64,000 bases of DNA, from assembly GCA_965372795.1 (NCBI GenBank), contig CBDVDR010000007.1, positions 1 to 64,000 on the forward strand, read 5' to 3'. Below the pieces are notes generated by a model, which saw only the letters and a program-made list of their open reading frames with translations, searched no databases and was not told where the DNA came from. The stretch is from an uncultured bacterium. Its GTDB lineage: Bacteria; Zixibacteria; MSB-5A5; GN15; FEB-12. A program made the translations under genes and the position numbers. How positions within the stretch are numbered: position 1 is the first letter of the stretch; each line of letters opens with the position of its first letter. Below are positions 1,585-52,728 of this stretch, in pieces.

Positions 1585-3129
1585 TTATACACCCAGAAAA
1601 ATAAATGCCTCACTCAGATAATCAACGATATCACCGGCTATTACCGATCTTTGAGTAAATTCATCCGCCGCCAGATCACCCGCCAAACCATGAACATAAA
1701 CACCAGCACAGGCTGAATCAAATGGCGAAAGCCCTTGCGCCAGCAAGGTTCCAATGATTCCCGAAAGAACATCACCCGACCCGCCAGTAGCCATGCCATT
1801 GTTACCTGTCGGATTCAACGCGCACTGACCATTTTTATCAGCAATAATTGTCGGGCTGCCTTTTAAAACCAAAGTCACCCCATGTTCGGTTGCGAATTTT
1901 TTTGCCTGTTCGATTCGTTTGAGATAATCGGTTTCCACCTCACAGCCGAGCAATCTTTTAAACTCACCCGGATGAGGCGTAAGGGTCAGGGTCGGGGACC
2001 CTTTTTTATTTTTCAAAATTTCTGTATGACCGACCAAAGCGTTCAAACCATCAGCATCAATTATCATCGGTTTATCAAGTTCGGTGACAAAACGCCTGAT
2101 GAGTTCTGTGGTTTGAAAGTGTTGTCCCAAACCGGGACCAATAATGACCGAATCATTTTCAGAGGCAATTTTTCTAATTTGTCCCAAACCGCGCAGGGCA
2201 AGTTTCCCCTGTTTTTTAATATCGGGCAATGGTTCTGTGACAGCCTCGATAATATTCGAGGCGATAGTCGGCAGGATAGTTTCGGGACAGCAGATTTTTA
2301 CCAGACCGCATCCGCTTCGAAGGGTTGCCTTTCCGGCAAGGATCGCCGCACCGGTCATGCCGGTTGAGCCCGCCAATACCATGACACGTCCGAAATCACC
2401 TTTGTGACCATCAGGTTTTCGTTCCGGCAGTAACGAGGTTACTTTTTTTGCCGTTAATATATCGCAGTCTAAGTTGAACGAATCGACAACATCATCAGGG
2501 ATTCCGATAGGAATAATTTCGACCTGACCGCTCATTTCCCGTCCGGGTGAGATGAACAGACCGTATTTGGGTTGTGCTAAAGTAAAAGTGTAGTCGGCTT
2601 CAATGACTGATCCGGAAAAGGTGCCATTGTCAGCATTCAAACCGGACGGCATATCGACCGCGACTGTAAGAACATTGCATCGGTTTATAAAGTCGATCAT
2701 ATCTTTTAAGAGTCCACGGGGAGAATCTGAGAATCCGGTTCCAAAAATTGCATCGATAATACAATCGGTTTCTAATCTTTCAGGAAGATCTTCAACAGAA
2801 TTCAAGGCAATTAATTTTATATCGAGTTGATTAGCTTTTTCAAAATTAGTTTGAGCATCGGCAGAAAGTTTTTCAACCGGAGAGGGGTAATAAATTGTTA
2901 CGGTATGTCTCGCTTCGTGAAGGTATCTTCCGATGACAAAGCCATCGCCGCCGTTATTGCCTTTGCCGCAGAAAATAGTAACATCAGATTTTTTAGAAGA
3001 TAAAATTAATTTAATTTCCCGGGCGATGCCGGATCCGGCATTTTCCATCAGATCCAATCCGGGGATACCGCGTTGATCGATAGTCTCCCGATCGATTTTT
3101 AGCATCTGTTCGGAAGTGACCAGTTTCAT
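1585..3129 (-). CDS. nnr: Bifunctional NAD(P)H-hydrate epimerase/dehydratase
   Basis: YjeF_N motifs LMENAG, CGKGNNGGDG, DAIFGTG and DMPSG; carbohydrate-kinase domain HKGDFG, IDADGLN, TPHPGEF, GGSGDVLSG. Confidence 0.95.
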   Translation of the reverse strand: MKLVTSEQMLKIDRETIDQRGIPGLDLMENAGSGIAREIKLILSSKKSDVTIFCGKGNNGGDGFVIGRYLHEARHTVTIYYPSPVEKLSADAQTNFEKANQLDIKLIALNSVEDLPERLETDCIIDAIFGTGFSDSPRGLLKDMIDFINRCNVLTVAVDMPSGLNADNGTFSGSVIEADYTFTLAQPKYGLFISPGREMSGQVEIIPIGIPDDVVDSFNLDCDILTAKKVTSLLPERKPDGHKGDFGRVMVLAGSTGMTGAAILAGKATLRSGCGLVKICCPETILPTIASNIIEAVTEPLPDIKKQGKLALRGLGQIRKIASENDSVIIGPGLGQHFQTTELIRRFVTELDKPMIIDADGLNALVGHTEILKNKKGSPTLTLTPHPGEFKRLLGCEVETDYLKRIEQAKKFATEHGVTLVLKGSPTIIADKNGQCALNPTGNNGMATGGSGDVLSGIIGTLLAQGLSPFDSACAGVYVHGLAGDLAADEFTQRSVIAGDIVDYLSEAFIFLGV

Positions 3130-3148
3130 TTTTGAGTTCCTATTTCAA

Positions 3149-5530
3149 TTATTTTTTGGTCTTGGTTCGGGTAGTTTTTTTAATACTGTTATCCAAGGCA
3201 AACTTAATTGCCGGAAGAACATCCGAAAAATATTTCAATTTGATATTCTTTTTAATTTCAGGTGGAAGCTCAATCGCATCTTTTCTATTTTCTTCAGGAA
3301 GAATCACTGTTTTAATTCCTGCCCGATAGGCCGCCAGCAATTTTTCTTTTAATCCGCCGATAGGGAGCAACTGTCCACGAAGAGTTATCTCGCCGGTCAT
3401 TGCCAAAAATGGTTTTACCGGTTTTCGGGTCAGAAGCGATGCAATCGCAACAGCCATGGTTATCCCTGCCGATGGACCATCCTTGGGCGTGGCACCTGCC
3501 GGAACATGAATATGGATTTCACAATTTTGGAATGCTTCAATCGGAATGTTGAATTCTTCCATATTTGAACGAATGAATGACATGCCGGCTTGAGTTGATT
3601 CTTTCATCACCGCCCCAAGCTGTCCGGTAAGGGTAAGCCCCGGTTTGCCGGGCATTGAAGTCGCTTCGATGAATAAAAGTTCGCCGCCTACGGAAGTATA
3701 AGCCAGTCCGGGAACGATTCCATGCCTTCCCTGTCGGGTCAAAATTTCACGGGTGTATTTTTGCGGTCCGAGAAGTTTTGGAATATCTTTTCCACTGATA
3801 GTATTTTTCTTTTTGTTACCCGAGGCGACCTTGCGGGCGATTTTTCTAATTACCGATGCAATTTCGCGTTCAAGATTTCTGAGTCCTGCCTCGCGGGTGT
3901 AATCTTCGATCAAAGATTTGACACCACTGTCGAGGATAATCATATTTTTATTTGAGAGACCATGATTCTCAAGCTGTTTGGGAATCAAATGTCTTTTTGC
4001 AATTGCAAGTTTTTCAATATCGGTATATCCGGGGATGCGAATTATTTCCATCCGGTCACGCAGGACCGCCGGAATCGGATCCATCCAGTTAGCAGTAGTT
4101 ATGAACATTACTTTTGAAAGATCGTAGGCAACCTCAAGATAATGATCTGAGAATGAATCATTTTGTTCAGGATCGAGAACCTCGAGCAAAGCCGAAGCGG
4201 GATCACCCCTGAAATCGGTTCCTAATTTATCGACTTCATCAAGCATAATGACGGGATTGTTTGATCCGCAGCGTTTGATACTTTGAATAATTCTACCCGG
4301 CATCGAACCGATATATGTCCGGCGATGACCTCTGATTTCAGCTTCATCGCGCATGCCGCCTAAAGATATGCGAGCAAATTTTCTACCCATAGATTTTGCA
4401 ATTGATTTCCCAAGCGAAGTTTTTCCAACTCCGGGAGGACCAACAAAGCAGAGGATGGGACCTTTGACATCCGCTTTGAGTTTCATGACGGCCAGATGTT
4501 CAAGGATTCTATCTTTAACTTTTTCAAGATCAAAGTGATCTTCATCCAGAACCTTTTTTGCTTTTTTTAGATCGAGATGATCTTTGGTAGATATTGACCA
4601 TGGTAGAGTCACCAACCAGTCAAGATAGGTTCGGGTAACGGTATATTCAGCGGACGATGGCGCCATATGTGACAGCCGATCTAGCTCTTTACGAGCCACT
4701 TCTTCAGCCATTGCCGGCATATTAGCATCATCTATTTTCTTAGCAAATTCATCAACATCGGTGCTTTCGTCACCCTGCCCTAATTCTTTTTTAATCGCTT
4801 TGAGTTGTTCACGCAGAATGTAATCTCTTTGAGATTTACCTAACTCGCTGGCAGCTTTTTCCTGGATATGCGCCGAAAGTTCAAGTACTTCAATTTCCTT
4901 ATTGAGCATCCGGTACAATAACTGTAATCTTTTTTCAACTTCAAGCTCACTCAGTACGGCTTGTTTTTGTTCAAAAGAGACGTTCAGATTAGATGCGACA
5001 AAATCGGCAAGTTTTGAAGGCGTGTCCTGATTAATAGCTGAGACATGGAATTCTTCAGTAAGATACGGTGCCTGTTCACTCAATTTTTTGACCGAGTTCA
5101 TAAGATTGCGCTGCAATGCTTCGATTTTAACTGACTCGGTAGAAATTTCTTCAAGCTCTTCAACTTCCGCCGCCATATACGGATTGTCAGTCATAAATTT
5201 TTTAATTTTGATTCTGGAAAGACCCTGAATTAAAAACCGAACCGACCCATCAGGGAAGCGAAGCATTTTTAAAATATTACCTGAAGTACCAACCTCGTAA
5301 AAATCTTCCGGACCGGGATTTTCCTGTTCAGGATCTTTTTGAAGAAACAGACCGATTCTTGATCCGCGCATTAAGGCATCATCAACCAGACGAGTCTGCT
5401 CCATATCCTGAATCATCAATGGTACGACCAGATAAGGAAAAACAATATTGTTTTTCATTGGCAGTATCGAGAGAACCTGTCTGGAACCCGAGGACTTATT
5501 ATTATTTTTTTCTTTAGTCTCTATGCTCAT
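3149..5530 (-). CDS. lon: ATP-dependent Lon protease
   Basis: LON N-domain, Walker [26 protein letters not shown], and catalytic PKDGPSAG. Confidence 0.97.
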
Positions 5531-5608
5531 ATTTCACTATTTCTAATTATTTGTTATCCATATATTTATCGGCGATTTTCTTAATTTGAAAACCCATAAA
5601 GCGATAAA

Positions 5609-6661
5609 TCAGACATTAAATCTAAACAGGACAATATCACCATCCTGCATAATATATTCTTTACCCTCAAGTCTGGTTTTGCCGGCTGATTTTAAAGCCG
5701 CCGGTGTTTTAAATTCAAGATAATCAGCATACGAAGTGACTTCGGCTCGAATAAATCCCCGCTCAATATCACTGTGAATAACGCCAGCTGATTTCTGGGC
5801 GTTTGTTCCTCTTCTGATAGTCCAGGCTCGAACTTCCGGTTCGGCGGCAGTGATATAAGAGATCAGACCCAGCAACTCATAAGATTTTTGAACAACATTT
5901 TCTACAGCCGGGATTGTTATGCCTAAATCTTCAAGGAACATTTTACGTTCATCATCTTCAAGAGTTACCAGTTCCATTTCAATTTTTCCGCACATCGCAG
6001 TGACATCTCTTTTACCGGCTGACACAAACGAGGACATTTTTTCAAGCATCGAATCAATGTTTTGAATATCAGATTCAGCAATATTTATTACGAACAATAA
6101 CGGTTTTTCAGTTATAAACATAAATCCGCGGATCAATTTCTTTTCTTCATCAGTAAGGTCTAAATCAATAAGCGGTTTTTCCAGTTCTAAAAAATCATAG
6201 CATTTCTTTAAGAGCTCAACCTCTTTTAGAACAGTTTTATCGCCGGTAATTTTTATCTTTTTAGATTTTTTTGCGATATTAGTTTCAAGCAAAGCCATAT
6301 CTATCAGGATCATTTCATCCTGTATCGCTTGAATATCCGCTTCCGGTGTTGCATCTGAAGAAAATCCATCAATGACCACCATCAAGGTTTCCATCTGTCT
6401 GATTTCCGGATTGATTTCAAATTTTTCCGAATCTTTCCCCTTCCCGCTGAATCCGGGGACATCGAGAAAAGAAATTTCTGCATAAGTGGTTTTTTTCGGA
6501 ATTATCATTTCGGTGAGAATATCAATTCTCACATCGGGTACTTTGATTACGCCCCTATGCATTGCCTGGCTAAAATCGCCAACGGCTTCCTGCATATTTG
6601 CTGCGGCATTAAATATGGTAGTTTTACCGCTCTGTGGTTTTCCAATTATTCCAAGTTTCAT
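5609..6661 (-). CDS. ychF: YchF/Obg-family ATPase (divergent G-domain)
   Basis: GKPQSGKTT P-loop; C-terminal EVRAWTI...AGVIHSDIERGFIRAEV...RLEGKEYIMQDGDIVLFRFNV. Confidence 0.88.
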   Translation of the reverse strand: MKLGIIGKPQSGKTTIFNAAANMQEAVGDFSQAMHRGVIKVPDVRIDILTEMIIPKKTTYAEISFLDVPGFSGKGKDSEKFEINPEIRQMETLMVVIDGFSSDATPEADIQAIQDEMILIDMALLETNIAKKSKKIKITGDKTVLKEVELLKKCYDFLELEKPLIDLDLTDEEKKLIRGFMFITEKPLLFVINIAESDIQNIDSMLEKMSSFVSAGKRDVTAMCGKIEMELVTLEDDERKMFLEDLGITIPAVENVVQKSYELLGLISYITAAEPEVRAWTIRRGTNAQKSAGVIHSDIERGFIRAEVTSYADYLEFKTPAALKSAGKTRLEGKEYIMQDGDIVLFRFNV

Positions 6662-6729
6662 AGGCGTCTAAGGTATAAGATAGTCAGGCATGATGCAAGT
6701 CTTTGTATTTCTATGATAAATACTGAGAA

Positions 6730-7581
6730 TTACTTTTTCTTAATCAAAGATCTTAGCACTTTCAAATTCTCAATATCATCAACAAGGGTTTCATCTTTAT
6801 GAGTTTCAAGAATCATAGGAATTTTCTTCAATCGATTATCATTTACAAAATTTCGAAAGGCTTCCAATCCGATAAAGCCCTTTCCGATATGCTCATGTCG
6901 GTCTTTTTTGGAGGCAAATTCTCTTTTACTGTCATTCATATGGATTATTTTCAATTTATCAAGCCCGATTAGGTCATCGAATTTTTTCATTGTTTTTTTG
7001 TAATCTTTAGGTTCTGAGATCGGATATCCAGCCGCAAAGATATGACAAGTGTCCAGACATATCCCTACTTTACTGTTATCTTCCACATTATCAATGAGAT
7101 AGGCGAGTTGCTCAAAGGTGTAGCCAAGATTTGTGCCTTGTCCGGCTGTTGCTTCAAATAGCAAAAATACATTATTATCTTCAAGCTGATCAAACAGTTT
7201 ATTGGCGTTTTCTACAATTCGGTTCAAACCTTCTTCCTCGCCGGATCCGACATGAGAGCCGGGATGCATTACTAATCCGGGGATTTTTAGTAGTTCGCAC
7301 CGCTCCATTTCTTCTTTAATAGCTAAAAATGATTTTTCATTCAGTTCTTCTTTGGGCGAGGCAAGATTAATCAGATAGCTGGAATGAGAACAGGAAACCG
7401 TCACGCCGGTTTCTTCCTGTCTTTGAAAATATTTATCTAACTCATCCTGTTTTAACAGTTTTGCCCGCCATTGACTGTTTGATTTATTAAACATCTGGAT
7501 AGTATCACAAGTGGCTTGTTTTCCACGGTCAATCGCGTTAAACACGCCCCCACTGATCGATTCATGTGCGCCAAAAATCAT
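6730..7581 (-). CDS. nfo: Endonuclease IV
   Basis: GAHESISGG, HSSYLINLAS, HPGSH, CLDTCHIFAAGY, HMNDSK, DRHEHIGKG, ILET. Confidence 0.95.
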   Translation of the reverse strand: MIFGAHESISGGVFNAIDRGKQATCDTIQMFNKSNSQWRAKLLKQDELDKYFQRQEETGVTVSCSHSSYLINLASPKEELNEKSFLAIKEEMERCELLKIPGLVMHPGSHVGSGEEEGLNRIVENANKLFDQLEDNNVFLLFEATAGQGTNLGYTFEQLAYLIDNVEDNSKVGICLDTCHIFAAGYPISEPKDYKKTMKKFDDLIGLDKLKIIHMNDSKREFASKKDRHEHIGKGFIGLEAFRNFVNDNRLKKIPMILETHKDETLVDDIENLKVLRSLIKKK

Positions 7582-7749
7582 ATTTTTCCTTACAATTTTT
7601 AAAAAACTTAATATCTATATTCAATCGTAATTTTAATCTCAAAGTTCCTTTAAATTTAATATCAAAAACTCAAAAATATAAGAAAAAAACTGACGCCCTT
7701 TGTCAGTTGGTCACCTTATAAAGGAGATATAAAACAGAAAGGGGGAATA

Positions 7750-8163
7750 ATGGGAGAGTCAATTTATATCCGGAATACTAATATAAAAATCACGGATGTT
7801 CTTGATTTAATAGCAAAAGGGTATTTGTACAATTCTATTCTGTATAAGTACCCAAATTTATCGATTAATGATATTATGGCAGTAGCCCAAACAGCCAAAA
7901 ATCTGGTTGAAATTCTGGTTTCTGATGATAAAATCGAAATTGATTATGAAATCTTGATCACCGCCCATAAAGGGAAAATTGTAAATTTGAATGAAATTCG
8001 CAAAGAATTTCCGCGAGCTTTTGAAAAATGGAGAACCGATGAAGATAATCTGCTGGTCAAGTTATATAAGGACAGAGTTAGTATCACAAAAATATCAATT
8101 CAAATGCAGCGACAGGTTGGGGCGATAATTGCAAGGTTGAAAAAGTTCGAGCTTATGAAATAG
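7750..8163 (+). CDS. DUF433-like / HTH protein
   Basis: IRNTNIKITDVLDLIAKG...KYPNLSINDI resembles DUF433; C-terminal PRAFEKWRTDED...RQVGAIIARL is Myb/HTH-like. GGGGG RBS upstream. Confidence 0.6.
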   Translation: MGESIYIRNTNIKITDVLDLIAKGYLYNSILYKYPNLSINDIMAVAQTAKNLVEILVSDDKIEIDYEILITAHKGKIVNLNEIRKEFPRAFEKWRTDEDNLLVKLYKDRVSITKISIQMQRQVGAIIARLKKFELMK

Positions 8164-33899: not shown

Positions 33900-33972
33900 T
33901 CCCCTGTAGCTCAGTTGGTAGAGCAGCTGACTGTTAATCAGCGGGTCGCAAGTTCGAGTCTTGCCGGGGGAG
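33900..33972 (+). tRNA. tRNA-Asn (GTT), CCA not encoded
   Basis: TCCCCTG acceptor pairing with CGGGGGA; D-arm TAGCTCAGTTGGTAGAGC; anticodon arm GCTGA-CTGTTAA-TCAGC; T-arm GCAAG-TTCGAGT-CTTGC; upstream TTGACA at 33847. Confidence 0.97.
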
Positions 33973-35478
33973 CTTTGTTATACGATTTTGCGAACTCCCA
34001 CTAAACTCAGGTAATTCAAAGATATCCAATATAATTTTATCTTGATAAATAATCACATCTTTAAGAATACATTGGATAGCTTCAGCTTGGTCTTTTGGTC
34101 CCAAAGCTTCAAATGCAATGCTGAAATCCTGTAGACTCTTTCTAACTAAATCTGCATCGTATTCTTCAAAAGCTTGTTCATTGATTTTTCTAGTAATTTC
34201 TTCTAATTCAAAATTTAGAATTTTTAAATTCTTTTCTCTAAATTCAATTTCTTTTTCTAAACGATCTATACTAATTTTCCCAACACCAATGGCTTGAACA
34301 TATTTATCAATTTGAGCTTCTAATTCAGAAATTCTCAGTTTGATCTTTTTAGCTTCATCTTCCAAGGGACCAATTTGATTTTTTAAATCACCATTTAGCT
34401 TTTCAATTGATTTATTTAGATAGGTTTCATTTTGGGATAAATCATAAAGATCATTAATTACGATTTTTTCAATTTTATTCGCATTAAAACTCTTAATTTT
34501 ACATACTCGATTACTAAAATTCATCGTTTTAGTACAGCGATAATAAGGTATTCGATTTATTGAGTTATCCTTATTTCTTTTTTGAGTATAATGGGGTGTC
34601 ATAACAGAACCACAATCACTACATCTAATTAAACCTTTTAATAGGTAAACTTTTTCAATCCTTGAAGTAGGATGACTTCTTGTTGGGTGCATTAATTGAA
34701 TTCTCTTAAATAGAGTTTCATCAATTATTGCTTCGTGTTGCCCTTTATAAATCTTTCCCTTTGATCGAGTTTTTCCTATATACACAGGATTTCTTAAAAT
34801 ATGAGCTATTGCACTTTTACTCCATCTACCATTTGATCGTGGTAAATAACCATACTTTTCCAATTCTAAGCGTAAACTACTTAATGAAGGATTTATACCA
34901 AAGTTATTAAACATAAATTTAATAATAGGTTCTTCTTCTGGATTCGGTAGAAGCTTTTTATTTTCCCTCAAATATCCATAAGGAGGTATGCCACCATTCC
35001 ATAAACCTTTTTGTGCTCTCTGTTGCATCTTATCACGTGTTCGATCTGAAATCATTTCTCTTTCAAATTGAGCAAAATCTAAAAGTATATTCCGTAGCAA
35101 GCGACCAGTAGGATGATTAGTATCAATATTTTGTGTAATAGAAACGAAGTTTACATTATATTTATCAAATTCTTCCATTAGAGTATGGAAATCTTTAACT
35201 GATCGAGTCAATCTATCAATCTTATAAACTAAAACACAATTGATTTTTCCTTTTTGGAAATCTCTGATCATTTCTTGTAATGCAGGACGTTTAACAGAAT
35301 CACCAGAAAAACCACCTTCTACATATACACGATAAATCTCATAATTATCCTGACTTTTACAATATGCTTCAAGCTTTTCTTTCTGTGAATCTAGAGAGCT
35401 ATAATCATTCACCATTTGACTACGACTTGATACACGAGTATAAAGAGCACAAATTATTTTATTTTTTTTCTTATCCAT
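33934..35478 (-). CDS. Large serine recombinase (resolvase + recombinase + Zn-ribbon)
   Basis: LYTRVSS catalytic Ser, KRPALQ, KIDRLTRS, FAQFEREMISDR, PPYGY, ILRNPVYIG, LLKGLIRCSDCG...YYRC. The last codons overlap the tRNA antisense. Confidence 0.95.
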   Translation of the reverse strand: MDKKKNKIICALYTRVSSRSQMVNDYSSLDSQKEKLEAYCKSQDNYEIYRVYVEGGFSGDSVKRPALQEMIRDFQKGKINCVLVYKIDRLTRSVKDFHTLMEEFDKYNVNFVSITQNIDTNHPTGRLLRNILLDFAQFEREMISDRTRDKMQQRAQKGLWNGGIPPYGYLRENKKLLPNPEEEPIIKFMFNNFGINPSLSSLRLELEKYGYLPRSNGRWSKSAIAHILRNPVYIGKTRSKGKIYKGQHEAIIDETLFKRIQLMHPTRSHPTSRIEKVYLLKGLIRCSDCGSVMTPHYTQKRNKDNSINRIPYYRCTKTMNFSNRVCKIKSFNANKIEKIVINDLYDLSQNETYLNKSIEKLNGDLKNQIGPLEDEAKKIKLRISELEAQIDKYVQAIGVGKISIDRLEKEIEFREKNLKILNFELEEITRKINEQAFEEYDADLVRKSLQDFSIAFEALGPKDQAEAIQCILKDVIIYQDKIILDIFELPEFSGSSQNRITKLPRQDSNLRPAD

Positions 35479-36753: not shown

Positions 36754-36939
36754 GTGCCCTATATAAGGCACATAAAGCGAATGAATCAATTAAAAGTTGA
36801 AAGGAGATTTGTACCCATAGAAAAGGTAAAAGCTGAAGAGTTGTCTAACGCTTTTTGGCGAATCTTAGTCGGAGGTGCAATATCTGCAACCTCCATTAAA
36901 CAAAAAATGTCCCTCAAAAAGGAGAATTACAATGGATAA
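36754..36939 (+). CDS. Small hypothetical protein (possible directionality factor)
   Basis: Co-oriented ORF in the operon, stop overlaps the next start; function inferred from position only. Confidence 0.4.
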   Translation: MPYIRHIKRMNQLKVERRFVPIEKVKAEELSNAFWRILVGGAISATSIKQKMSLKKENYNG

Positions 36940-37231
36940 CGAAATAATCGTTGAATTAAGACAAATTGAAGACAATAAATTTTCAAAAGCTAAAGCAGAA
37001 ATAACTCTGCAAACTCCTTTTGGTGAAATTACAATAACTAGAATGAGAGTAGTTCACCAAGATGGTAAAGATCCTTGGGTGGCATTTCCCGAAATACCAT
37101 ATCAACCTAAGGATTCTTCTGAAAAACGATACTTGAAAGTTATTTTGCCAAGTAAAAGATTAAGAGCTGCAATATCAGAAGCAGTACTTAATAAATATGG
37201 GAGTATGAAATTCAATGAGAAATCATTCTGA
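36932..37231 (+). CDS. SpoVG-like nucleic-acid-binding protein 1
   Basis: Start MDNEII after AGGAG; KAKAEITL...ITITRMRVV....PWVAFPE pattern. Confidence 0.65.
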   Translation: MDNEIIVELRQIEDNKFSKAKAEITLQTPFGEITITRMRVVHQDGKDPWVAFPEIPYQPKDSSEKRYLKVILPSKRLRAAISEAVLNKYGSMKFNEKSF

Positions 37232-37532
37232 TATCACAGCTACAATTCATCTATTTAAAGATGCTCAGAATCTTAAAGCTTATGCTGATGTAGCTATTAA
37301 AACTCGAATAGGCGAAATTACTATTCGTAGATTTAAAGTGATTTCAACTAATTCTGGTAAATTGTGGGTTGCACTTCCCCAATTTGAGTATCAAAAAATT
37401 CTTTCAACTTCTTATGTGGATGCAATTGTAACCACTAAAAGAGCATTTCGCAGAATTCAAAGATTAGTTTTGAATGAATACAAAAAGAAGATTCATCTGG
37501 AAAATTCCCATGTTCAGGTTGATCGCTCCTGA
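37215..37532 (+). CDS. SpoVG-like nucleic-acid-binding protein 2
   Basis: LKAYADVAI...ITIRRFKVI....LWVALPQ...VLNEY pattern. Confidence 0.7.
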   Translation: MRNHSDITATIHLFKDAQNLKAYADVAIKTRIGEITIRRFKVISTNSGKLWVALPQFEYQKILSTSYVDAIVTTKRAFRRIQRLVLNEYKKKIHLENSHVQVDRS

Positions 37533-37661
37533 CATGGGGGGCGTACGGTTTGCCCTAATGAGAGCAGCTTCAAGGCTGCTCTCTGACCGGTGCCCAAGCC
37601 GCCGGGGTCCTATTGGCGAATGCCAATGGGCGGCGGCAACAAAGCGATTGCCCGAAGGGCA
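37507..37661 (+). other. GC-rich multi-hairpin region (candidate single-strand origin or structured RNA)
   Basis: Stems at 37507-37538, 37539-37554, 37560-37583, 37598-37637 and 37649-37661 in an AT-rich element. Confidence 0.6.
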
Positions 37662-37738
37662 TACTGGCTTCTTGGTTGCTCTTGTTTCTGGCGTCATTTG
37701 TTGTCTATCTGTCAACTCGCAATTTTGGAGGAATTTAT

Positions 37739-38458
37739 ATGGCTTCTTCACTTGATATTAATAAGCATAATCGAAACAAGTTCTGCGGAAGATATTCACT
37801 AAAAGGATATTTAGAACAAAATGGAGAAAAGAAAATTAGATACGCAAGGCTCGGATGTAAAGGATGGAACTGTCAAATATGTGGACCTAGAAAAGCTTCT
37901 AAGTATCGTCATTCAATCAAAGAACAAGCTCTAAAGTTAAACTTAGATAGATTTCTTACATTAACTTTGGATCCCAAAAAATGCAAACCACATAATTCCT
38001 TGCCACATATAAAAAAGAGTTGGGCTAAATTCAGAATTTCTTTAAAAAGAAAATATGGTCATAGCATTTCATTTATCTGTATTGTGGAATTCCAAAAAAA
38101 TGGTTATGCACACTTACATATTCTTGTTGATCGTTTTATACCTCAAAAATGGATATCACACGCTTGGAATTCTGTAGGTGGAGGAAAGATCGCATTTATT
38201 GAGAGAGTTGAATTAAAGAGTATTGCTTATTATATAACTAAATATTTAACTAAAGATACAAACTTCAATAATTCGGGGAAGCGATACCGAAAATGCACAA
38301 CATCTAGAAATATTAAACTAAATTATCATAAGAAATCAGGGAAATGGGTAGTTATGACAGTTCCTATTGAAGAAATACATAATTCTTATAAGAAACAACA
38401 ATCGAAAGAACATAGAGATATGTCTGGGATGTTACATTGGTTTGAGATTTCAGTATGA
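37739..38458 (+). CDS. HUH rolling-circle replication initiator
   Basis: Motif I FLTLT, motif II EFQKNGYAHLHILV, motif III YYITKYLTK, N-terminal CKGWNCQIC; GGAGG RBS before ATG 37739. Confidence 0.88.
   Translation: MASSLDINKHNRNKFCGRYSLKGYLEQNGEKKIRYARLGCKGWNCQICGPRKASKYRHSIKEQALKLNLDRFLTLTLDPKKCKPHNSLPHIKKSWAKFRISLKRKYGHSISFICIVEFQKNGYAHLHILVDRFIPQKWISHAWNSVGGGKIAFIERVELKSIAYYITKYLTKDTNFNNSGKRYRKCTTSRNIKLNYHKKSGKWVVMTVPIEEIHNSYKKQQSKEHRDMSGMLHWFEISV
37750..37764 (+). other. Putative double-strand origin / nick site
   Basis: ACTTGATATTAATAA matches the phiX174 origin (CAACTTG^ATATTAATAAC) and contains the CTTGATA nick consensus. Confidence 0.7.
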
Positions 38459-38479: not shown

Positions 38480-38508
38480 TTGACTTAAAAAGGATCAATA
38501 ATTACATT
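38480..38508 (+). promoter_or_regulatory. Sigma70-like promoter for cargo operon
   Basis: TTGACT-17 nt-TACATT upstream of the GAGGGG RBS. Confidence 0.55.
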
Positions 38509-38555
38509 TATACAAACAGGACTAATTCATCTAGAAAAAACTAGAGGGGAATCAC

Positions 38556-39101
38556 ATGGACCTAATCCCAGAATTTAAGAAATTTGCAAAAAAAAGAGCC
38601 AAAGAAATAAAGGCAATGACTGATGTTCAATTTACTCCTGAAACTGCTCAGGTTAACATTGCAGGTCAACAACTTCAATTCAAATTAAATGTAGAGCAAA
38701 CAGCTGCTTGGAAATTGTATGTTGAATTAAATACAAGGATCTCTACTCAACCCTTATCCAAAAAAGACGGGCTATTAAGGGAAGCATTATCTTCTCTTTA
38801 TATAATATTTGGAGTTACAAGAGATATTTTAAAAGAAGCTGGACCTGGCGTAGCAATCGGTCCAAATTCTTTTGGATATTATGCTATGGAAATTCTCAAT
38901 CAAGTTATAAGACCGTTGTTAGCAAAATGGAATCATAAATTACTTAATTGTTAAAAACATAATAAATTAAATTTATCTCAATTTGAACATTAAAAAAAAT
39001 GGAATAAACAAATAGCTTTACGAAAAGAGATTGAAAAAACAAGAAAAGTAATAATTGAATATAATAAATCTTTAGCCATAATCGCAGGGATTTCAAAATA
39101 A
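38556..39101 (+). pseudogene. Helical protein of unknown function interrupted by two in-frame TAA (38952, 38991)
   Basis: Frame continues C*KHNKLNLSQFEH*KKWNKQIALRKEIEKTRKVIIEYNKSLAIIAGISK* and ends 6 nt before the next gene. Confidence 0.7.
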
Positions 39102-39107
39102 TAAGTT

Positions 39108-39584
39108 ATGATTAAAAGACAAGTTTTTATAAGCTTCCATCATAAAAATGAGCAATCTGTAGTAGACGATTTTGTGAATGCATTCAGCACTTACTATGAC
39201 GTTTTTACTGACAGATCTCTTGATAGAGCTGCAGATAGCGATGATACTGAATACTTAAATCAAGTATGTAGAGATGCCATAGAAGGTACAAGTATAACAA
39301 TCGTAATAATAGGTACTGAAACTGGTAAAAGAAAATTTGTAGACTGGGAAATTAAACATACTTTATTAAAAAAACATGGACTTCTAGCTATATTTCGACC
39401 AAACCTAGAAGATCACCTTACAAATTTGCCGAATCGCTTAATTGACAACATAAATTCAGGATATTCAAATTGGTATAAATACCCATCTTCTCCAGAAGAT
39501 CTGCGATTAATGTTAGAAAAAGCATACAATATAAACAAAGCTTTGATAGACAATAGTAGAGAAAAAATGAAAAGAAACCTATAA
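39108..39584 (+). CDS. ThsB-like TIR domain protein (MTH538/DUF1863)
   Basis: RQVFISFHH, TSITIVIIGTET..RKFVDWEI, GLLAI, LPNRL.DN. Confidence 0.85.
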   Translation: MIKRQVFISFHHKNEQSVVDDFVNAFSTYYDVFTDRSLDRAADSDDTEYLNQVCRDAIEGTSITIVIIGTETGKRKFVDWEIKHTLLKKHGLLAIFRPNLEDHLTNLPNRLIDNINSGYSNWYKYPSSPEDLRLMLEKAYNINKALIDNSREKMKRNL

Positions 39585-39616
39585 TGTTCTTAACGATAAG
39601 CCATTTGAGTATCTAA

Positions 39617-40261
39617 ATGAATATAAATAATTCGTATAAGTGGGATATTTTTATTAGTTACCATAGATTACCTGCAATTGAAAAATGGTTAAAAGAAATA
39701 TTAATTCCTTTACTCGAACTTCATCTACCAAGTTCATTGGGAAGAGAAGCAGATATATTCTGTGATGATAATATAAAAACTGGTAATCATTGGCCAAATG
39801 AATTGAGCGATGCATTAGCATATTCTAAAGTATTGTTACCAATTTGGACTGTACTTTATTTTCATCGAGAATGGTGTTTAAAAGAGTGGTTAACTATGGT
39901 CAACAGAGAATCTAAATTAAATAGTCTTTCAAGGGAAGAGCAATTTACATTAATCAAGCCGATAAGACTACTTGATGGAAATAAATATCCTATATTTGCT
40001 CAAAATACACAAAGTTTAACCTGTACTAATTATTTTACAACTTCTGAATGTTATAAACAAACACTCGAGTATATAAACCTAGAGAAAAAGATAACAGATT
40101 GGTGTAATAATGACTTAGGACAATCGATAGTTACTGCACCACCTTGTCAAGAATTTTGGTTAAATGAAGAATTTTCTAGAAATTCAATAAGAGCTTTAGA
40201 ATCACAAAGTGAAATGCAACCTATTGATTTAAACACAACACCAAGATTAGGTAATGAATGA
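39617..40261 (+). CDS. TIR domain protein (TIR_2/FxsC-like)
   Basis: WDIFISY, IFCD..IKTG..WP..L..AL..SKVL, YF..EWC..EW. Confidence 0.85.
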   Translation: MNINNSYKWDIFISYHRLPAIEKWLKEILIPLLELHLPSSLGREADIFCDDNIKTGNHWPNELSDALAYSKVLLPIWTVLYFHREWCLKEWLTMVNRESKLNSLSREEQFTLIKPIRLLDGNKYPIFAQNTQSLTCTNYFTTSECYKQTLEYINLEKKITDWCNNDLGQSIVTAPPCQEFWLNEEFSRNSIRALESQSEMQPIDLNTTPRLGNE

Positions 40262-42747
40262 GTAAAATAATTACATTCTATTCTTACAAAGGTGGAGTTG
40301 GTCGTTCCATGGCATTAGCAAACGTTGCGGTAAAACTATCAGGATTGGGACATAAAACTCTTATAATAGATTGGGATCTTGAAGCTCCAGGATTGGAATT
40401 CTATTTTAAAGAATATTTGGATTTAAGTAAAATAAAAACTAAACCAGGCATTATTGATATTTTAAAAGGAGATCATTCTACAAATTTAAAATCAACTAAA
40501 TGGACAGATTGCATCTCAACAATTAGTATTGATAATGCAACTCCATCCATACATTTTATATCATCAGGTAGCAACAAAGATAATTATTATAAAAAAGTAC
40601 AAGAATTTGATTTAGATAGTTTCTTTAATAAGAATAAAGGACAATCCCTGTTATACGAATTAAGAAATGAATGGTTAAATACTTATGACTTTATCCTCAT
40701 CGATAGTCGTACTGGCATTACAGACTATGGAGGAATTTGTACTATTCTTTTACCAGATGTAAACATACTATTTGTGACAACTAACGATCAAAGTCTTACA
40801 GGTAGTGAATATGTATTTGAAAAAGCGCATCAAATTAGAAAACAACTCCCTTACGATTATGAAAACATTATTTTTGTTCCAATATTAAGTAGATATGATG
40901 CTACTGAAGAATATCAAATTTCACAAGATTGGATAAAAAAAATAGATAAATCATTGTCTAAACTTTATGAGAAATGGACACCAAGGAACATTATAACAGA
41001 AGAACTAATTCAACAAACAAGCATTCCTTATATCCCATATTTTAGTTACGGTGAAAGACTTGCAGTTTTAGAAGAAAGTTCATCAATGACTAGATCTTTA
41101 AGCAATGCATATGAGAACCTTTCAGCATTAATTGCAAATAATTTCCAATATCTTGATGATATGATAAATAATCGAAGAAGTTTTTTAGCAAGAGCTTCAA
41201 AAATAAAAAATAAAGATGACTTAAGATTGAGACACACTGTTCCGCTTGTAAATTCTCCAGATTTAATCCATTTAAATTATGATAATCATCAAAAATGGTT
41301 AAGTACAAATGGTTCTGCAGGAGATCAAATGGATATAAAAAACAAAGAATTTTTAAATTTAGAACTTTTTGATCTTAATTTAGGCAAGTCCGAATTCAAC
41401 ACTTCAACAATGAAGAACTCCAATTTCACTTTTATTGATTTTTCTCATTCATCTTATAGATATAGTAATTTTTCGGGATCCAAATTTACATCTTCAAACC
41501 TATCATCTATAGATGGTTTTAATGCAATCTATATTAATGTCATATTTGATGGTGTAAGCGCTACACTATCCGATTTGTCTACTAGCAATTTAACAGATGC
41601 TATAATTAAAAACTCTGATTTTTTTCAATCAAATTTAGATGATTGTAATATGCAAAATTCCAAACTTCAAAATTCAAACTTTGATCTTGCTAGTTTTAAA
41701 AATTCTGATTTGAACTCTTCGAATCTCGAGCATTCAAATTTTTATAGATCTAATTTTGCAAATGCAAACCTTAGATCATGCATTTGTTATGATGCAGATT
41801 TTAAAGGGGCTAACTTCAGTGATGCTAATCTAGCATATGCAAAGGGATTAAAAGAATCTCAACTAAAAATGACAATATTAGATTTTGCAAAATTACCTGA
41901 TCATATAAATTTTAGTGATTCACTAAATTCTTTTGGTAAAAATTTAAAAAGTGTACAGAGTTCATTTTGGATAACATCTATAATTGCACTTACTTATTTG
42001 TTTGCTCTTATAAATTACTTAACAATCGGTAACTCTAAAGAGTTTATTATTTTTTTACCAAATCTCCAAAATTTCGCCATTCCACAAATAATTGCAATTA
42101 TAATTTCCATGTACTAGTCACAAAGTTTATGGGATAAAATATCAAAATTACCATGTAGTTTTCCTGATGGTAAAACTCTTCATGAAAAAGGAGATTCTAT
42201 TTTTTTTGTAGGAAATATTTTTCCTACGCTCCAGAGAAATAACATAAGAGCTAATCCATTTAGGAGTATTCTATTCATAAGTTTGTATTGGGGATCTACA
42301 TCTATAATCTATGTTTCTGGTGCTTTTGTCATTTATACATATCCTAATTTTTATCCAGATACTAATTTCACTTTTTCCTTTATAGTTGCAATTTCATTAA
42401 GTTTAATAGGAATTTTATCATATTTTTATTCTAATATAAAGTTAGCTAAAAATAATAGACCAAGTTTTATTTGTTCTCACGAAGTAGCATTATTTAATTT
42501 GCCAAAAAAAATGTTTAAATATGAAATGTTAGATTTATTAGATAATTATGGAAGAATCTTAAGTTTAAGAAAAACAATTAGTATCAATGATGATATAGTG
42601 TGGAGTGTAAGGTTAGAGAGTAATTTTCAGGTACAAAAAGTGATAAAAAGTCTTGATCGTAGTAATTTTCATAATAAAGTGATAAGAGCTATTGGTATAC
42701 CGATTGGAGAGGAATTATCTAAAACTCTATATAATAGAGTCAAATAA
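40258..42747 (+). pseudogene. KGGVGR-variant ParA/MinD ATPase-pentapeptide repeat-TM-RRM-like protein with one in-frame TAG (42115-42117)
   Basis: FYSYKGGVGRS, DWDLEAPGL, YDFILIDSRTG, IPYIPYFSYGE; pentapeptide repeats. The frame stays open after the TAG and joins the 42283..42747 ORF. Confidence 0.8.
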
Positions 42748-42810: not shown

Positions 42811-43566
42811 TTACTTCAACTTTATGACGTCAATTATTTCATCACCTTCATCTAAGTTAATTAACCTATCTCCATCTAATATTAAAACATCAGAAGAACC
42901 GATCCAGATACTAGTTGAATATGTATAATAGTCATCAACTTGATATAAACTTCCATCTAACATCTCTAATATTGAACCATCTCCTTTTACTTCATAAATA
43001 TATGCCTCTTCAACATCGCAAGAAGTTGCATAACTAGCTTCTTTTAATATATCACACCTATAAGATCTCTTACCTTCGATCCATATTTTCCATTGGTTGC
43101 TTACTCTGTAAAGTACTGCAGTCTTTCGATATCCTATATATCCTAAATATCCAGAAGTTATTTCAACAATAGCACCATTATCCAAAGTAACTACATCTTT
43201 AATATCAGAGTCTACTTTACTAATATAAGCAATATCTGAATTTGGAGATCCTTTTATATTGGTTGGATTACTTTTCTTCTGATTCACTATATTTTTTCGA
43301 AAGATTTCTGAGCATTCTTTATATCCCATCTCATAAATACCATTCATCAATTTATTTAATTTATTTTTCTCTAAGTCAGTTAATTTTCTTAATCCGATAG
43401 AATTACTCATAATCGTATCATTTTGAATTATTGATATAAAATTAAATTCAAATTGAGTAGTATTTTGAGCTAAACTAATTTGTACAATAAAGATAAGTAT
43501 AGTTAGTTGAATGTAGATATGCCTGATTAAGAAAAATAGTGATTTATTCTTTTTCATAAAATACAC
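42811..43566 (-). CDS. Secreted hypothetical protein
   Basis: Long ORF with signal-like N-terminus and beta-rich C-terminal half. Confidence 0.6.
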   Translation of the reverse strand: MYFMKKNKSLFFLIRHIYIQLTILIFIVQISLAQNTTQFEFNFISIIQNDTIMSNSIGLRKLTDLEKNKLNKLMNGIYEMGYKECSEIFRKNIVNQKKSNPTNIKGSPNSDIAYISKVDSDIKDVVTLDNGAIVEITSGYLGYIGYRKTAVLYRVSNQWKIWIEGKRSYRCDILKEASYATSCDVEEAYIYEVKGDGSILEMLDGSLYQVDDYYTYSTSIWIGSSDVLILDGDRLINLDEGDEIIDVIKLK

Positions 43567-43729
43567 CCTTATTTTTATAAGATTTAGCCTAATTTATTGA
43601 AAATATACTAAGAAGTCAATATAGTTACAATATAACAAATTACCTGAAGATAAGACCATTTTTGAATAACTTTATATCAAAAAAAAAAAATTAAATTTAA
43701 CTTATATAGATCGTTTTATAACGAATCTA

Positions 43730-43814
43730 ATAGTTCGCAATTCGTACAATACGGGGAGCTTAAGTTTTTCTACTCAACAACTTACTAAAATTCAATTTGT
43801 ACGGATTGCGAACT
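43730..43814. repeat. att-like junction 1 (arm-core-IHF-like box-inverted arm)
   Basis: agttcgcaattcgtacaa...ggggagctt...tcaacaacttac...ttgtacggattgcgaact (17/18 inverted repeat). Confidence 0.85.
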
Positions 43815-43915: not shown

Positions 43916-44548
43916 GTGTGTATGGAAAACAGTGAATTGATTCTAGAATATTTAAAGATATTTCTTACTTGGCCGGTTATTGGAGGTGTATTACTATTAA
44001 TTTTTATTTTCAATTTCAAATCTTCCATTGTAGGAATATTTAACAGAATAAGGAGTGCTAAGGTTGGTAATGTAGAATTTGAAGCCCCACTTATTCAAAA
44101 AGAGCTGAGTGATATAAAATCAGATCATACATTACTTGATAGTAATGTTATAGTGAACGATTCAAATGATAACTCAATTGATGAACAGACTTATAAGGAA
44201 AAATATGAAACCTTATTGGGGTTATATAACGATATTCAATTAGAATTTTATTTTGAAATGTTACTTAATATTTTATTTGGCACACAATTAAGATTATTAC
44301 AATCTATAAATAATATCGGAGATGATGGTATTGACTTAGATCGTATTTATCCTTTCTATAATGAGAATCTCTCTAAGAGCAAATTAACCAATTGGGGAGT
44401 CAATGATTTTTTGAGAATCTTAATTAATTACAATATAATTAATAAGAATGAATCTACGAATAAATATCAAATTACTCCAAATGGAACTAATTTTTTGTCA
44501 TATGTTGAAAAAAATCATAACCATAAATTTCAATCATTACAGTTTTAA
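43916..44548 (+). CDS. Hypothetical membrane-anchored protein (sole gene of segment B)
   Basis: N-terminal TM (TWPVIGGVLLLIFIF); C-terminal wHTH-like LFGTQLRLL...YQITPNG..FL.Y. Confidence 0.7.
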   Translation: MCMENSELILEYLKIFLTWPVIGGVLLLIFIFNFKSSIVGIFNRIRSAKVGNVEFEAPLIQKELSDIKSDHTLLDSNVIVNDSNDNSIDEQTYKEKYETLLGLYNDIQLEFYFEMLLNILFGTQLRLLQSINNIGDDGIDLDRIYPFYNENLSKSKLTNWGVNDFLRILINYNIINKNESTNKYQITPNGTNFLSYVEKNHNHKFQSLQF

Positions 44549-44578
44549 TATTATTTATCTATTAACAGCTTGAACCTT

Positions 44579-44667
44579 ATAGTTCGCAATTCGTACAATA
44601 CGGGGAGCTTTATTAATTCTCTTTCATATCAACAACTTACAACATTACAGATTGTACCTTTTCGACT
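44579..44667. repeat. att-like junction 2
   Basis: 32 nt identical to 43730-43761, then tatcaacaacttac and a degenerate arm attgtaccttttcgact. Confidence 0.85.
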
Positions 44668-51392: not shown

Positions 51393-52728
51393 GCATTTTA
51401 GAATACAAATAATCTCGCGCGTTCTCATTTTATGTGTGACTATTTTGGCTGCAGCCTGGCTCCTGAGTGCAACTGAAAAGTATGCCACGACCGGGATGGT
51501 TATCCTATTGTTCATTCTACAGGTGATCTTTCTCATTCGATTTGTTGAAAAAACAAATCACACGATGGCAGAGTTCCTGCAAGCGATTGAATACGACGAT
51601 TTTACTCAGTCTTTCGGGAATGTTGCAAGCGGCAAATCGTTCGACGAGTTGAATCAGGCCTTTGTTAAAGTTTCTGCGAATTTCCGAGAGGTTCGTCTGG
51701 GGAGGGAGGAAAATTACAGATACTTGCAGACGGTCGTTCAGCATGTTGGAGTCGGCATGGTAGCATTTCAGGAGAGCGGAGAGGTCGAACTTTTTAACTC
51801 TACCGCCAAGAAGATACTGCAATTGGCTTCATTGAAGAATATCAATGACCTTAAAATGAAAAGTCCGGAACTTTTAGAACGTATTAAATTTCTCAATCCG
51901 GGAGAGCGCGATCTGGTTCGAGTCACAATTGATAAAAACTTGGTACAACTGTCTCTTTTTATGACTATCCTTAGGATGCGCAATCGCAAAATAACTCTGG
52001 TGTCGTTTCAGAATATCTCCGCTGAGCTTAACGAAAAAGAGATGCAGGCATGGCAGAATCTTATCAGGGTGTTCACTCACGAAATAAAAAACTCTTTGAC
52101 GCCGATCAGTTCTTTGGCTGGAACTATAGAAACTCTCTTAGTTCCAATTACGTCGCAACTAAACGTGAAGAATCGGGAGAGCATTACTGATATCTCCGAG
52201 GCTCTTACGACAATCAAGAGTCGTTCAGAAGGCTTACATGAGTTTATTAATGCTTATCGTGATCTGACAAACCTTCCCCAACCTGTGTTTGAATCGTTCA
52301 AGGTGACCTCTATGTTTGAGCGGGTTGGACAGCTTGTGAAAGATCAAATTCAATCTGGGGGGATTAATTACTGTGTAGAACTATCGAATCAAACCCTCTC
52401 GGTTACAGCAGACAGCAAAATGATCGAACAGGTGTTGATCAATCTGATCCTTAACTCAATCCAGGCTTTGAATGGATGTGAAAAACCGAAATTAAAAGTG
52501 TGTGGGTTTGTTGATTATCAGAATCGAGTAACAATTACTGTCGAAGACAATGGCCCGGGGATTGCGAATACGGCGATTGACAAAATATTCGTACCGTTTT
52601 TTACTACTAAGAAAACCGGCTCAGGAATTGGCCTAAGTCTGTCAAGGCAAATCATGCGTCTTCACAAAGGTGAACTAACTGTTTCGTCTGAACCAGATAA
52701 ACGCACAATCTTAACCATGCGCTTCTAA
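51382..52728 (+). CDS. Sensor histidine kinase (NtrY-like)
   Basis: Start MVFKHF overlaps the regulator stop; two TMs, PAS-like, HEIKNSLTPI, DNGPGI, FFTTK..GSGIGL. Confidence 0.92.
   Translation: MVFKHFRIQIISRVLILCVTILAAAWLLSATEKYATTGMVILLFILQVIFLIRFVEKTNHTMAEFLQAIEYDDFTQSFGNVASGKSFDELNQAFVKVSANFREVRLGREENYRYLQTVVQHVGVGMVAFQESGEVELFNSTAKKILQLASLKNINDLKMKSPELLERIKFLNPGERDLVRVTIDKNLVQLSLFMTILRMRNRKITLVSFQNISAELNEKEMQAWQNLIRVFTHEIKNSLTPISSLAGTIETLLVPITSQLNVKNRESITDISEALTTIKSRSEGLHEFINAYRDLTNLPQPVFESFKVTSMFERVGQLVKDQIQSGGINYCVELSNQTLSVTADSKMIEQVLINLILNSIQALNGCEKPKLKVCGFVDYQNRVTITVEDNGPGIANTAIDKIFVPFFTTKKTGSGIGLSLSRQIMRLHKGELTVSSEPDKRTILTMRF

Follow-up and report, generated by a model that had tools for sequence, protein, structure and literature searches.

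Do four neighbouring genes on a mobile island in an uncultured bacterium form a single new defence system, or do two smaller systems lie side by side? The genes occupy the region 38480..42747 of contig CBDVDR010000007.1, of which positions 1 to 64,000 were analysed (64,000 nt, hereafter the window). An initial annotation, made from the letters alone, had proposed one new operon consisting of an unknown helical protein, a ThsB-like TIR, a second TIR and a KGGVGR ATPase fusion, all in one orientation, and the open reading frames (ORFs) and domain matches agree with this inventory. The interpretation we favour, with a confidence somewhat above even, is that two TIR-based abortive-infection modules lie next to each other on an integrative element at a tRNA-Asn gene, and that nonsense mutations have inactivated both of them. 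Module A would comprise the helical protein, here called g1, and the ThsB-like TIR (TIR1), and module B the second TIR (TIR2) and the ParA-like ATPase. The helical protein and the ATPase fusion, which had been singled out from the start, proved to be the informative members. The ORFs as they stand in the assembly are given first below, followed by the genes as reconstructed from them.

38556-38954, + strand: ORF 1, g1 before its first stop (132 aa)
39108-39584, + strand: ORF 2, TIR1 (158 aa)
39617-40261, + strand: ORF 3, TIR2 (214 aa)
40258-42117, + strand: ORF 4, the ATPase before its stop (619 aa)
42283-42747, + strand: ORF 5, the remainder of the ATPase (154 aa)
38556..39101, + strand: g1, broken, a helical protein of a TIR-associated family (read-through ~181 aa; alignment with homologues)
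39108..39584, + strand: TIR1, a ThsB-like single-domain TIR, intact, with Glu82 in 'VDWEI' (Pfam PF08937 ThsB_TIR, 3.8e-18)
39617..40261, + strand: TIR2, a TIR of the FxsC type ('TIR-FC'), intact, with Glu90 in 'WCLKEW' (Pfam PF13676 TIR_2, 2.6e-7)
40258..42747, + strand: a broken KGGVGR ParA-like NTPase (NCBIfam NF047398 AAA_KGGVGR, 2.1e-45; PF00805, 9.2e-18; read-through)

Two of the genes are interrupted. The g1 frame stays open past TAA 38952-38954 and TAA 38991-38993, up to a double stop at 39099, and the read-through product of 181 residues is 99% covered by homologues of ~186 aa; in the alignment with these homologues both TAA codons fall at a conserved Glu. A genome search likewise shows the g1 stops. 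ORF 4 and ORF 5 also share one frame, with TAG 42115-42117 as the single interruption. At this point 14 ParA homologues (706-1007 aa) read uninterrupted, and their invariant LPxxFPDG motif falls downstream of the TAG. Because all three stops are followed in frame by an open continuation, and the homologues are continuous, the locus carries three nonsense mutations in 2 of its 4 genes, as the initial annotation had implied. An alternative genetic code was ruled out as an explanation, since TAA and TAG are both involved and both TAA codons occupy a conserved Glu position. As assembled, both modules therefore appear to be disabled, and the copy in the window is decayed and probably non-functional.

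The spacing of the genes depends on how g1 is read. If g1 is read through its stops, 6 nt separate it from TIR1 and the tight packing first described holds; for g1 as it stands the gap is 153 nt and it does not. TIR1 and TIR2 are 32 nt apart, and the reported overlap of TIR2 with the start of the ATPase amounts to 4 nt by coordinates. The proposal of one promoter for the whole set found no support: the promoter-like TTGACT-17-TACATT at 38480-38508 fits only 9/12 positions, and such sites are not enriched in the region, where 34 were counted against 47.4 +/- 6.3 in shuffled sequence. A clear Shine-Dalgarno-like GAGGGG lies 6 nt upstream of the g1 start codon (window 38530-38555).

The downstream half of the region resembles a system that has already been described. 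Li, Burroughs and Aravind (10.64898/2026.10.19.760177) predicted computationally a TIR-ParA system in which a TIR with an NAD+-degrading site lies upstream of a ParA-clade NTPase; in the accessible text of that preprint the TIR is of the TIR-FC type, as in FxsC, the ParA protein is the switch and its variable C-terminal fusions are interpreted as sensors. On phylogenetic grounds the authors place such ParA domains in a conflict branch named ConB2. The window shows the same plan, with a conventional TIR that has a catalytic Glu upstream, followed by a ParA protein with added C-terminal domains. TIR2 matches FxsC_Nterm (NCBIfam NF040588) at 1.1e-11, which lies under the cut-off of that model. 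Its Glu90 aligns to the Glu of the plant TIR motif 'WCLDEL' and is kept in 63/63 TIR-FC-type sequences, a set that combines the TIR2 of the window with 62 TIR ORFs (150-240 aa) taken from ParA-anchored loci. In the ATPase, a ParA/MinD-like domain at residues 1 to ~300 is followed by pentapeptide repeats at residues ~430-560 and, according to hydropathy of the read-through protein, by a C-terminus in which 3-4 hydrophobic segments occur, among them 570-590, 597-615 and 704-722. This ParA-pentapeptide-membrane architecture is common to the 14 homologues.

Pairing of TIR and ParA genes is also seen elsewhere. With 3532 matches in 7999 candidates scored, KGGVGR ATPases form a very large family. 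Its members are fused to TIR, FtsZ/tubulin, PNP, SAVED, NACHT, FGE-sulfatase, TPR and other domains, and the nearest ParA relatives of the window ATPase bear or adjoin TIR domains. ParA relatives served as anchors for 80 metagenome loci, where the match to the window protein lies in the ParA domain only. Of these loci, 76 contain a TIR ORF, mostly of ~200 aa and abutting or overlapping the start of ParA, just like TIR2; the ParA protein itself bears an additional TIR in 17/80. In an acidobacterial class, 37/301 genomes match the window ATPase, again in the ParA domain only. Because a ParA-clade NTPase with variable C-terminal domains is preceded directly by a TIR with an active site, TIR2 and the ATPase are, by sequence, a predicted member of the TIR-ParA system that was described in silico in October 2026. 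Elsewhere in the source genome, a stretch of contig 10 (G000, 52036-52166; L179) resembles the N-terminus of the KGGVGR ParA, with 70% DNA identity over 128 nt, and suggests a second ATPase gene of this type.

The match is not complete. The combination of pentapeptide repeats, 3-4 membrane segments and an LPxxFPDG loop is not among the subtypes named in the accessible text of the preprint, the window has neither a TIR-FT nor an FxsC-C domain, and its ParA gene is cut by the TAG. The TIR2-ParA half would thus add a pentapeptide and multi-pass membrane C-terminal architecture to a system known in silico. The same preprint, in the part available, lists pentapeptide repeats among the accessory domains of PCTM (ParA with C-terminal transmembrane domain) proteins, which also have a cytoplasmic ParA domain fused to C-terminal membrane helices. 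PCTM loci, as described there, have a SLATT, 2TM, caspase or CPPC-4h effector upstream where the window has a TIR, and their repeats are periplasmic and follow the transmembrane helices, whereas those of the window lie between the ParA domain and the first transmembrane segment. In PADLOC-DB 2.0.0 the ATPase corresponds to candidate PDC-M28B (9.9e-27) and TIR1 to PDC-M50B, and no 'A' component of PDC-M28 or PDC-M50 was matched; a literature search for PDC-M28 found no paper. If module B works as Li and colleagues propose, an infection cue would be sensed by the pentapeptide and membrane part at the C-terminus of the ParA protein, the KGGVGR NTPase would act as the switch that unleashes the NAD+-cleaving activity of the upstream TIR2, and cleavage of NAD+ would kill or arrest the cell.

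In the upstream half, TIR1 resembles the TIR proteins of Thoeris. In addition to its Pfam match it is recognized in PADLOC as PDC-M50B (2.5e-16) and ThsB (1.9e-14), and its 'VDWEI' motif aligns to 'VRYEI' of the Bacillus cereus ThsB structures 6LHY and 9B7D, the Glu of which we take to be the catalytic residue. This Glu is invariant in 7/7 TIR1-like relatives, so that the claim of a catalytic Glu in both TIRs of the window stands. The closest counterpart of the g1-TIR1 pair was found in a gammaproteobacterial metagenome-assembled genome (MAG; L001), where a g1 relative (57% identity) stands 3 nt ahead of a ThsB-like TIR gene whose product shares 68% identity with TIR1. ThsB-like TIRs are also partners of g1 in L014, L018, L019, L045 and L078. 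What the window lacks is a known Thoeris effector. Pfam, PADLOC and NCBIfam searches of the window proteins detected no SIR2, SLOG, Macro or STALD domain near TIR1, in accord with the initial annotation, and in the same three collections g1 matches none of the effector types described (SIR2-SLOG, Macro-TM, caspase-like, DUF2270, DUF6650 and others).

We conclude from sequence comparisons that g1 represents a widespread TIR-associated family that lies outside Pfam, NCBIfam and PADLOC, and that it is the new element of the locus. Neither the window copy nor any of 58 family members matches Pfam at E<=1, the window copy has no match in NCBIfam or PADLOC, and no relative occurs among the sequences of the Protein Data Bank (PDB). 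No description of the family was found in the accessible portions of the ParA preprint, the Thoeris preprint discussed below or Kaur et al. 2020 (PMC7159879), and the supplements of both preprints may list it. A pattern scan with one genome per species located relatives at 473 places, in hosts that include Streptomyces, cyanobacteria, Bacillota, Chloroflexota, Acidobacteriota, Bacteroidota and Myxococcota, and identity across phyla is 40-60%. One locus was found in viral contigs. This near absence indicates that g1 is no phage counter-defence protein. The novelty first claimed for the operon as a whole is accordingly confined to g1: the TIR2-ParA half matches a described system, an outcome that the initial annotation had itself named as evidence against its proposal.

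The association of g1 with TIR genes was assessed in the best 80 of the 473 loci, with flanks of up to 7 kb. A TIR profile iterated from TIR2 detected a TIR ORF in 54/80, within 1 kb of g1 (<=1 kb) in 48; Pfam searches of 115 same-strand g1 neighbours identified TIR domains in 22 loci and added L036 and L067, which brings the total to at least 56/80. Calls made with the TIR profile were upheld by Pfam in 13/14 large proteins checked; the fourteenth, at L008, was judged on the top 25 of 56 families. The partners have diverse architectures, including TIR-CHAT-STAND-TPR (L010), LRR-Roc-COR-TIR (L011, L025), TIR-FGE-sulfatase (L012) and, in five loci, TIR-GUN4. In actinomycetes they are TIR-NB-ARC-TPR and TIR-WD40 proteins, mostly transcribed divergently from g1. 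At L002 (5645-11292, a Planctomycetota MAG), a g1 relative with 51% identity lies amid four tandem pentapeptide genes with a C-terminal TIR, an arrangement that recalls the pentapeptide repeats of the window ParA. Fusion proteins exist as well, in which the g1 domain comes last, behind TIR at L049, TIR-AAA at L056 and a KGGVGR ParA at L048, and in the ESM Atlas the model of a 201-member cluster of 617-aa TIR proteins matches g1 at a TM score of 0.75.

What might g1 do beside so many TIR proteins? In the scheme we favour, g1 and TIR1 would be a Thoeris-like pair: TIR1 would sense infection and make an ADP-ribose-derived signal, and the four-helix bundle of g1 would bind that signal and execute or relay the response, in the manner of ThsG in type VI Thoeris. 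Extended to the family, this becomes the tentative and somewhat doubtful proposal that g1 is a general receptor or receptor-effector for small molecules made by TIR domains, one that serves both minimal ThsB-type TIRs and the TIR-NB-ARC-TPR, TIR-WD40 and TIR-ParA proteins. If it were correct, many bacterial TIR-STAND proteins would signal through a separate small receptor and not merely burn NAD+, in parallel with plant TNLs, which act through EDS1 complexes.

Several findings weigh against a purely signal-activated effector role. The first concerns the partners themselves, many of which are TIR-NB-ARC-TPR or TIR-WD40 proteins that seem complete alone and would need no signal receptor. The TIR of such proteins is usually regarded as the NAD+-depleting effector. 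The second is that g1 takes the C-terminal 'sensor' position in fusions. Together, the self-sufficient partners and the sensor-position fusions led us to keep a regulatory and a sensory function as rivals.

In the regulatory version, which we consider quite unlikely, g1 would not be a signal-activated effector but would restrain TIR proteins directly, as an antitoxin, a safety catch or a sponge for the signal, and TIR1 would be the NADase toxin of a two-gene module resembling toxin-antitoxin pairs. A generic TIR-directed regulator suits the variety of partners better than a dedicated effector does, since g1 accompanies almost any TIR architecture, TIR-STAND proteins with their own sensor, switch and effector included, and g1 has no recognizable killing domain. 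The antitoxin gene usually comes first in toxin-antitoxin pairs, and g1 is upstream of the ThsB-like TIR in the window, L001, L018 and L019; the order is reversed, however, in L014, L045 and L078, and covalent fusions to TIR and ParA proteins would be atypical of antitoxins. The state of the window copy also bears on the question. Loss of an antidote should be counter-selected, and here g1 is broken while TIR1 is apparently intact with its Glu, a weak argument against g1 as an antidote.

The sensory version, in which g1 is an upstream sensor or bait that, once it has bound part of a phage or a ligand induced by infection, activates the neighbouring TIR protein, strikes us as improbable. It derives support from the fusions, where g1 is always C-terminal, in the place occupied by TPR and WD40 sensors (TIR-AAA-g1 at L056, ParA::g1 at L048), and the ParA preprint, in its accessible text, treats C-terminal ParA fusions as sensors. 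A set of conserved aromatic and charged residues (W52, Y55, E57, R61, R75, R89, R119, H126) suggests a binding pocket. On the other hand, in the Thoeris systems studied so far, as the available text of the sources presents them, ThsB proteins themselves sense infection, and many g1 partners already own TPR or WD40 sensors. In addition, g1 is well conserved between phyla and lacks the fast divergence that is frequent in invader-binding sensors.

For the receptor-like function that we tentatively prefer, the obvious point of comparison is ThsG. In the AlphaFold2 (AF2) model of g1 (mean predicted local distance difference test score 83.8), an N-terminal helix and a hairpin precede a four-helix bundle. 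Searches with this model in Foldseek and VIA-align returned nothing but generic helical bundles, and the ESM Atlas offered DUF6650 (0.84), to be taken as a lead only. DUF6650 corresponds to ThsG, which serves as effector in type VI Thoeris (Yirmiya et al., 10.64898/2025.12.03.692087) and which according to the accessible text responds to a 2'cADPR signal and is modelled as a hexameric tube with a killing mechanism that is not known. The helices of the two AF2 models follow in the same order with similar lengths (DUF6650/g1: 15/15, 19/22, 28/28 and 26/26 residues). The top PDB representative is 5w93_A for both, and 18/50 VIA-align rows are common to them, all of which are ordinary four-helix bundles.

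Sequence comparisons give the analogy less support. The DUF6650 model (PF20355, cut-off 27 bits) matches 0/58 g1 family members at E<=1 and nothing in the genome of the window. With an alignment of 69 DUF6650 sequences built for this purpose, hhalign of g1 against DUF6650 gave a probability of 2.7% and an E value of 0.017 over 134 colinear columns, and hmmsearch in both directions reached a best E of 0.08-0.095. The hhalign alignment fails to bring the invariant residues of g1 and of DUF6650 into register. Since the profile scores are weak and the shared folds generic, homology is no more than possible, and we describe g1 as analogous to ThsG in modelled fold class, in size and in its place beside a ThsB-like TIR. 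Type VI Thoeris (ThsB + ThsG) differs from the window in that g1 misses PF20355 and also pairs with large TIR-STAND proteins. DUF6650 was found in 1/285 genomes of the phylum of the window and in 4/401 of a Streptomyces-type family, and in those 5 loci Pfam detected no TIR within two genes on either side. A complex prediction for the L001 TIR with its own g1 scored 0.00, which is evidence neither way. A HEPN-like Rx6H motif in g1 (R119...H126) was considered and dropped: 0/58 members match HEPN at E<=1, and the sole HEPN row for g1 in Foldseek has an E of about 1.

With the two halves characterized, we can return to the question of whether they work together. A single composite system, in which g1 is a shared sensor, adaptor or receptor and the ThsB-like TIR, the TIR-FC and the ParA protein form one cascade, is in our estimation unlikely. 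The layout of the window speaks for it, as all the genes are co-oriented, with gaps of 6 nt (g1 read through) and 32 nt and an overlap of 4 nt; against it, defence genes gather in islands without functional coupling. Its main difficulty is that the set does not recur. Among 160 related loci, 80 anchored on g1 and 80 on ParA, none (0/160) contains all four genes, and each pair recurs separately. g1 is present in 2/80 ParA-anchored loci (L128, as a fragment, and L137) and a ThsB-like TIR in 1/80 (L140), ParA occurs in 2/80 g1-anchored loci (L048 and L063), and the closest g1-ThsB pair, at L001, has no ParA. Because g1 and ParA rarely meet and no locus holds the full set, two modules that happen to be neighbours are better supported than a single system of four genes, and from this rarity we infer that the modules are independent.

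Four loci weigh against this separation. At L048, a standalone g1 and a TIR-FC precede a ParA protein with a C-terminal g1 (g1, TIR-FC, ParA::g1, in order), and at L063 and L137 g1 also lies beside TIR-ParA dyads, in divergent orientation. L140 (a metagenome contig, 2983-8007) encodes RES, a 132-aa protein, a ThsB-like TIR, a TIR-FC and ParA::FtsZ/tubulin, the last four of which match the order of the window; the 132-aa protein, however, has no relation to g1 detectable by hhalign. Given the arrangements at L048 and L140, we accord coupling of the two modules some probability. The TIR-ParA pairing itself was counted on matches to the ParA domain, which the ParA-pentapeptide-transmembrane orthologues share.

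The interest of the locus follows from these results. TIR domains are central to the immunity of bacteria, plants and animals, and receivers of TIR output are known for few bacterial effectors. A small protein that is conserved beside nearly every TIR architecture, and sometimes fused to it, would offer a cheap and testable handle on TIR signalling or its control, and could supply a missing component to DefenseFinder and PADLOC annotation. As the copy in the window is decayed, this value lies in the g1 family and not in the locus itself.

The setting of the genes agrees with the original description of them as mobile-element cargo. A low-GC block at 34-45 kb (27-30% GC, compared with ~40-47% in the flanks) begins at a tRNA-Asn gene, which shares its 3' part with the end of a recombinase gene. 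The features of the island are as follows.

33900..33973, + strand: tRNA-Asn (GTT), the integration site of the island (ARAGORN; Rfam RF00005, 70.3 bits)
33934..35478, - strand: a large serine recombinase (PF00239, 9.3e-42; PF07508; PF13408)
37613..38458, + strand: a Rep-like replication initiator, immediately upstream of the operon (PF23343, 2.3e-15)
43723..43771, + strand: candidate att site 1, which repeats the 3' end of tRNA-Asn in degenerate form (direct repeat family D1; compared by eye with the tRNA)
44572..44620, + strand: a degenerate copy of the tRNA-Asn 3' end, att-like site 2 (direct repeat and GC profile)

An M78 peptidase with a helix-turn-helix domain is also encoded on the island (Pfam). 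The att-like copy at 44572-44620 is probably the right end of the low-GC block. The DNA of the operon was not found in the 40 relatives searched, one genome of the same genus included. Two further ORFs, 42811-43566 (- strand, 251 aa) and 43916-44548 (+ strand, 210 aa), sit between the operon and the att-like repeats; neither has a Pfam, NCBIfam or PADLOC match at 0.001, and one gives a faint winged-helix hint. Since the repeats flank the ORF at 43916-44548, the island may be composite. Upstream of Rep, at window positions 36875-37532, lies a tandem pair of SpoVG-like genes, which match PF04026 at 6.8e-5 (short of the cut-off) and 5.1e-7; such a pair is uncommon in an integrative element.

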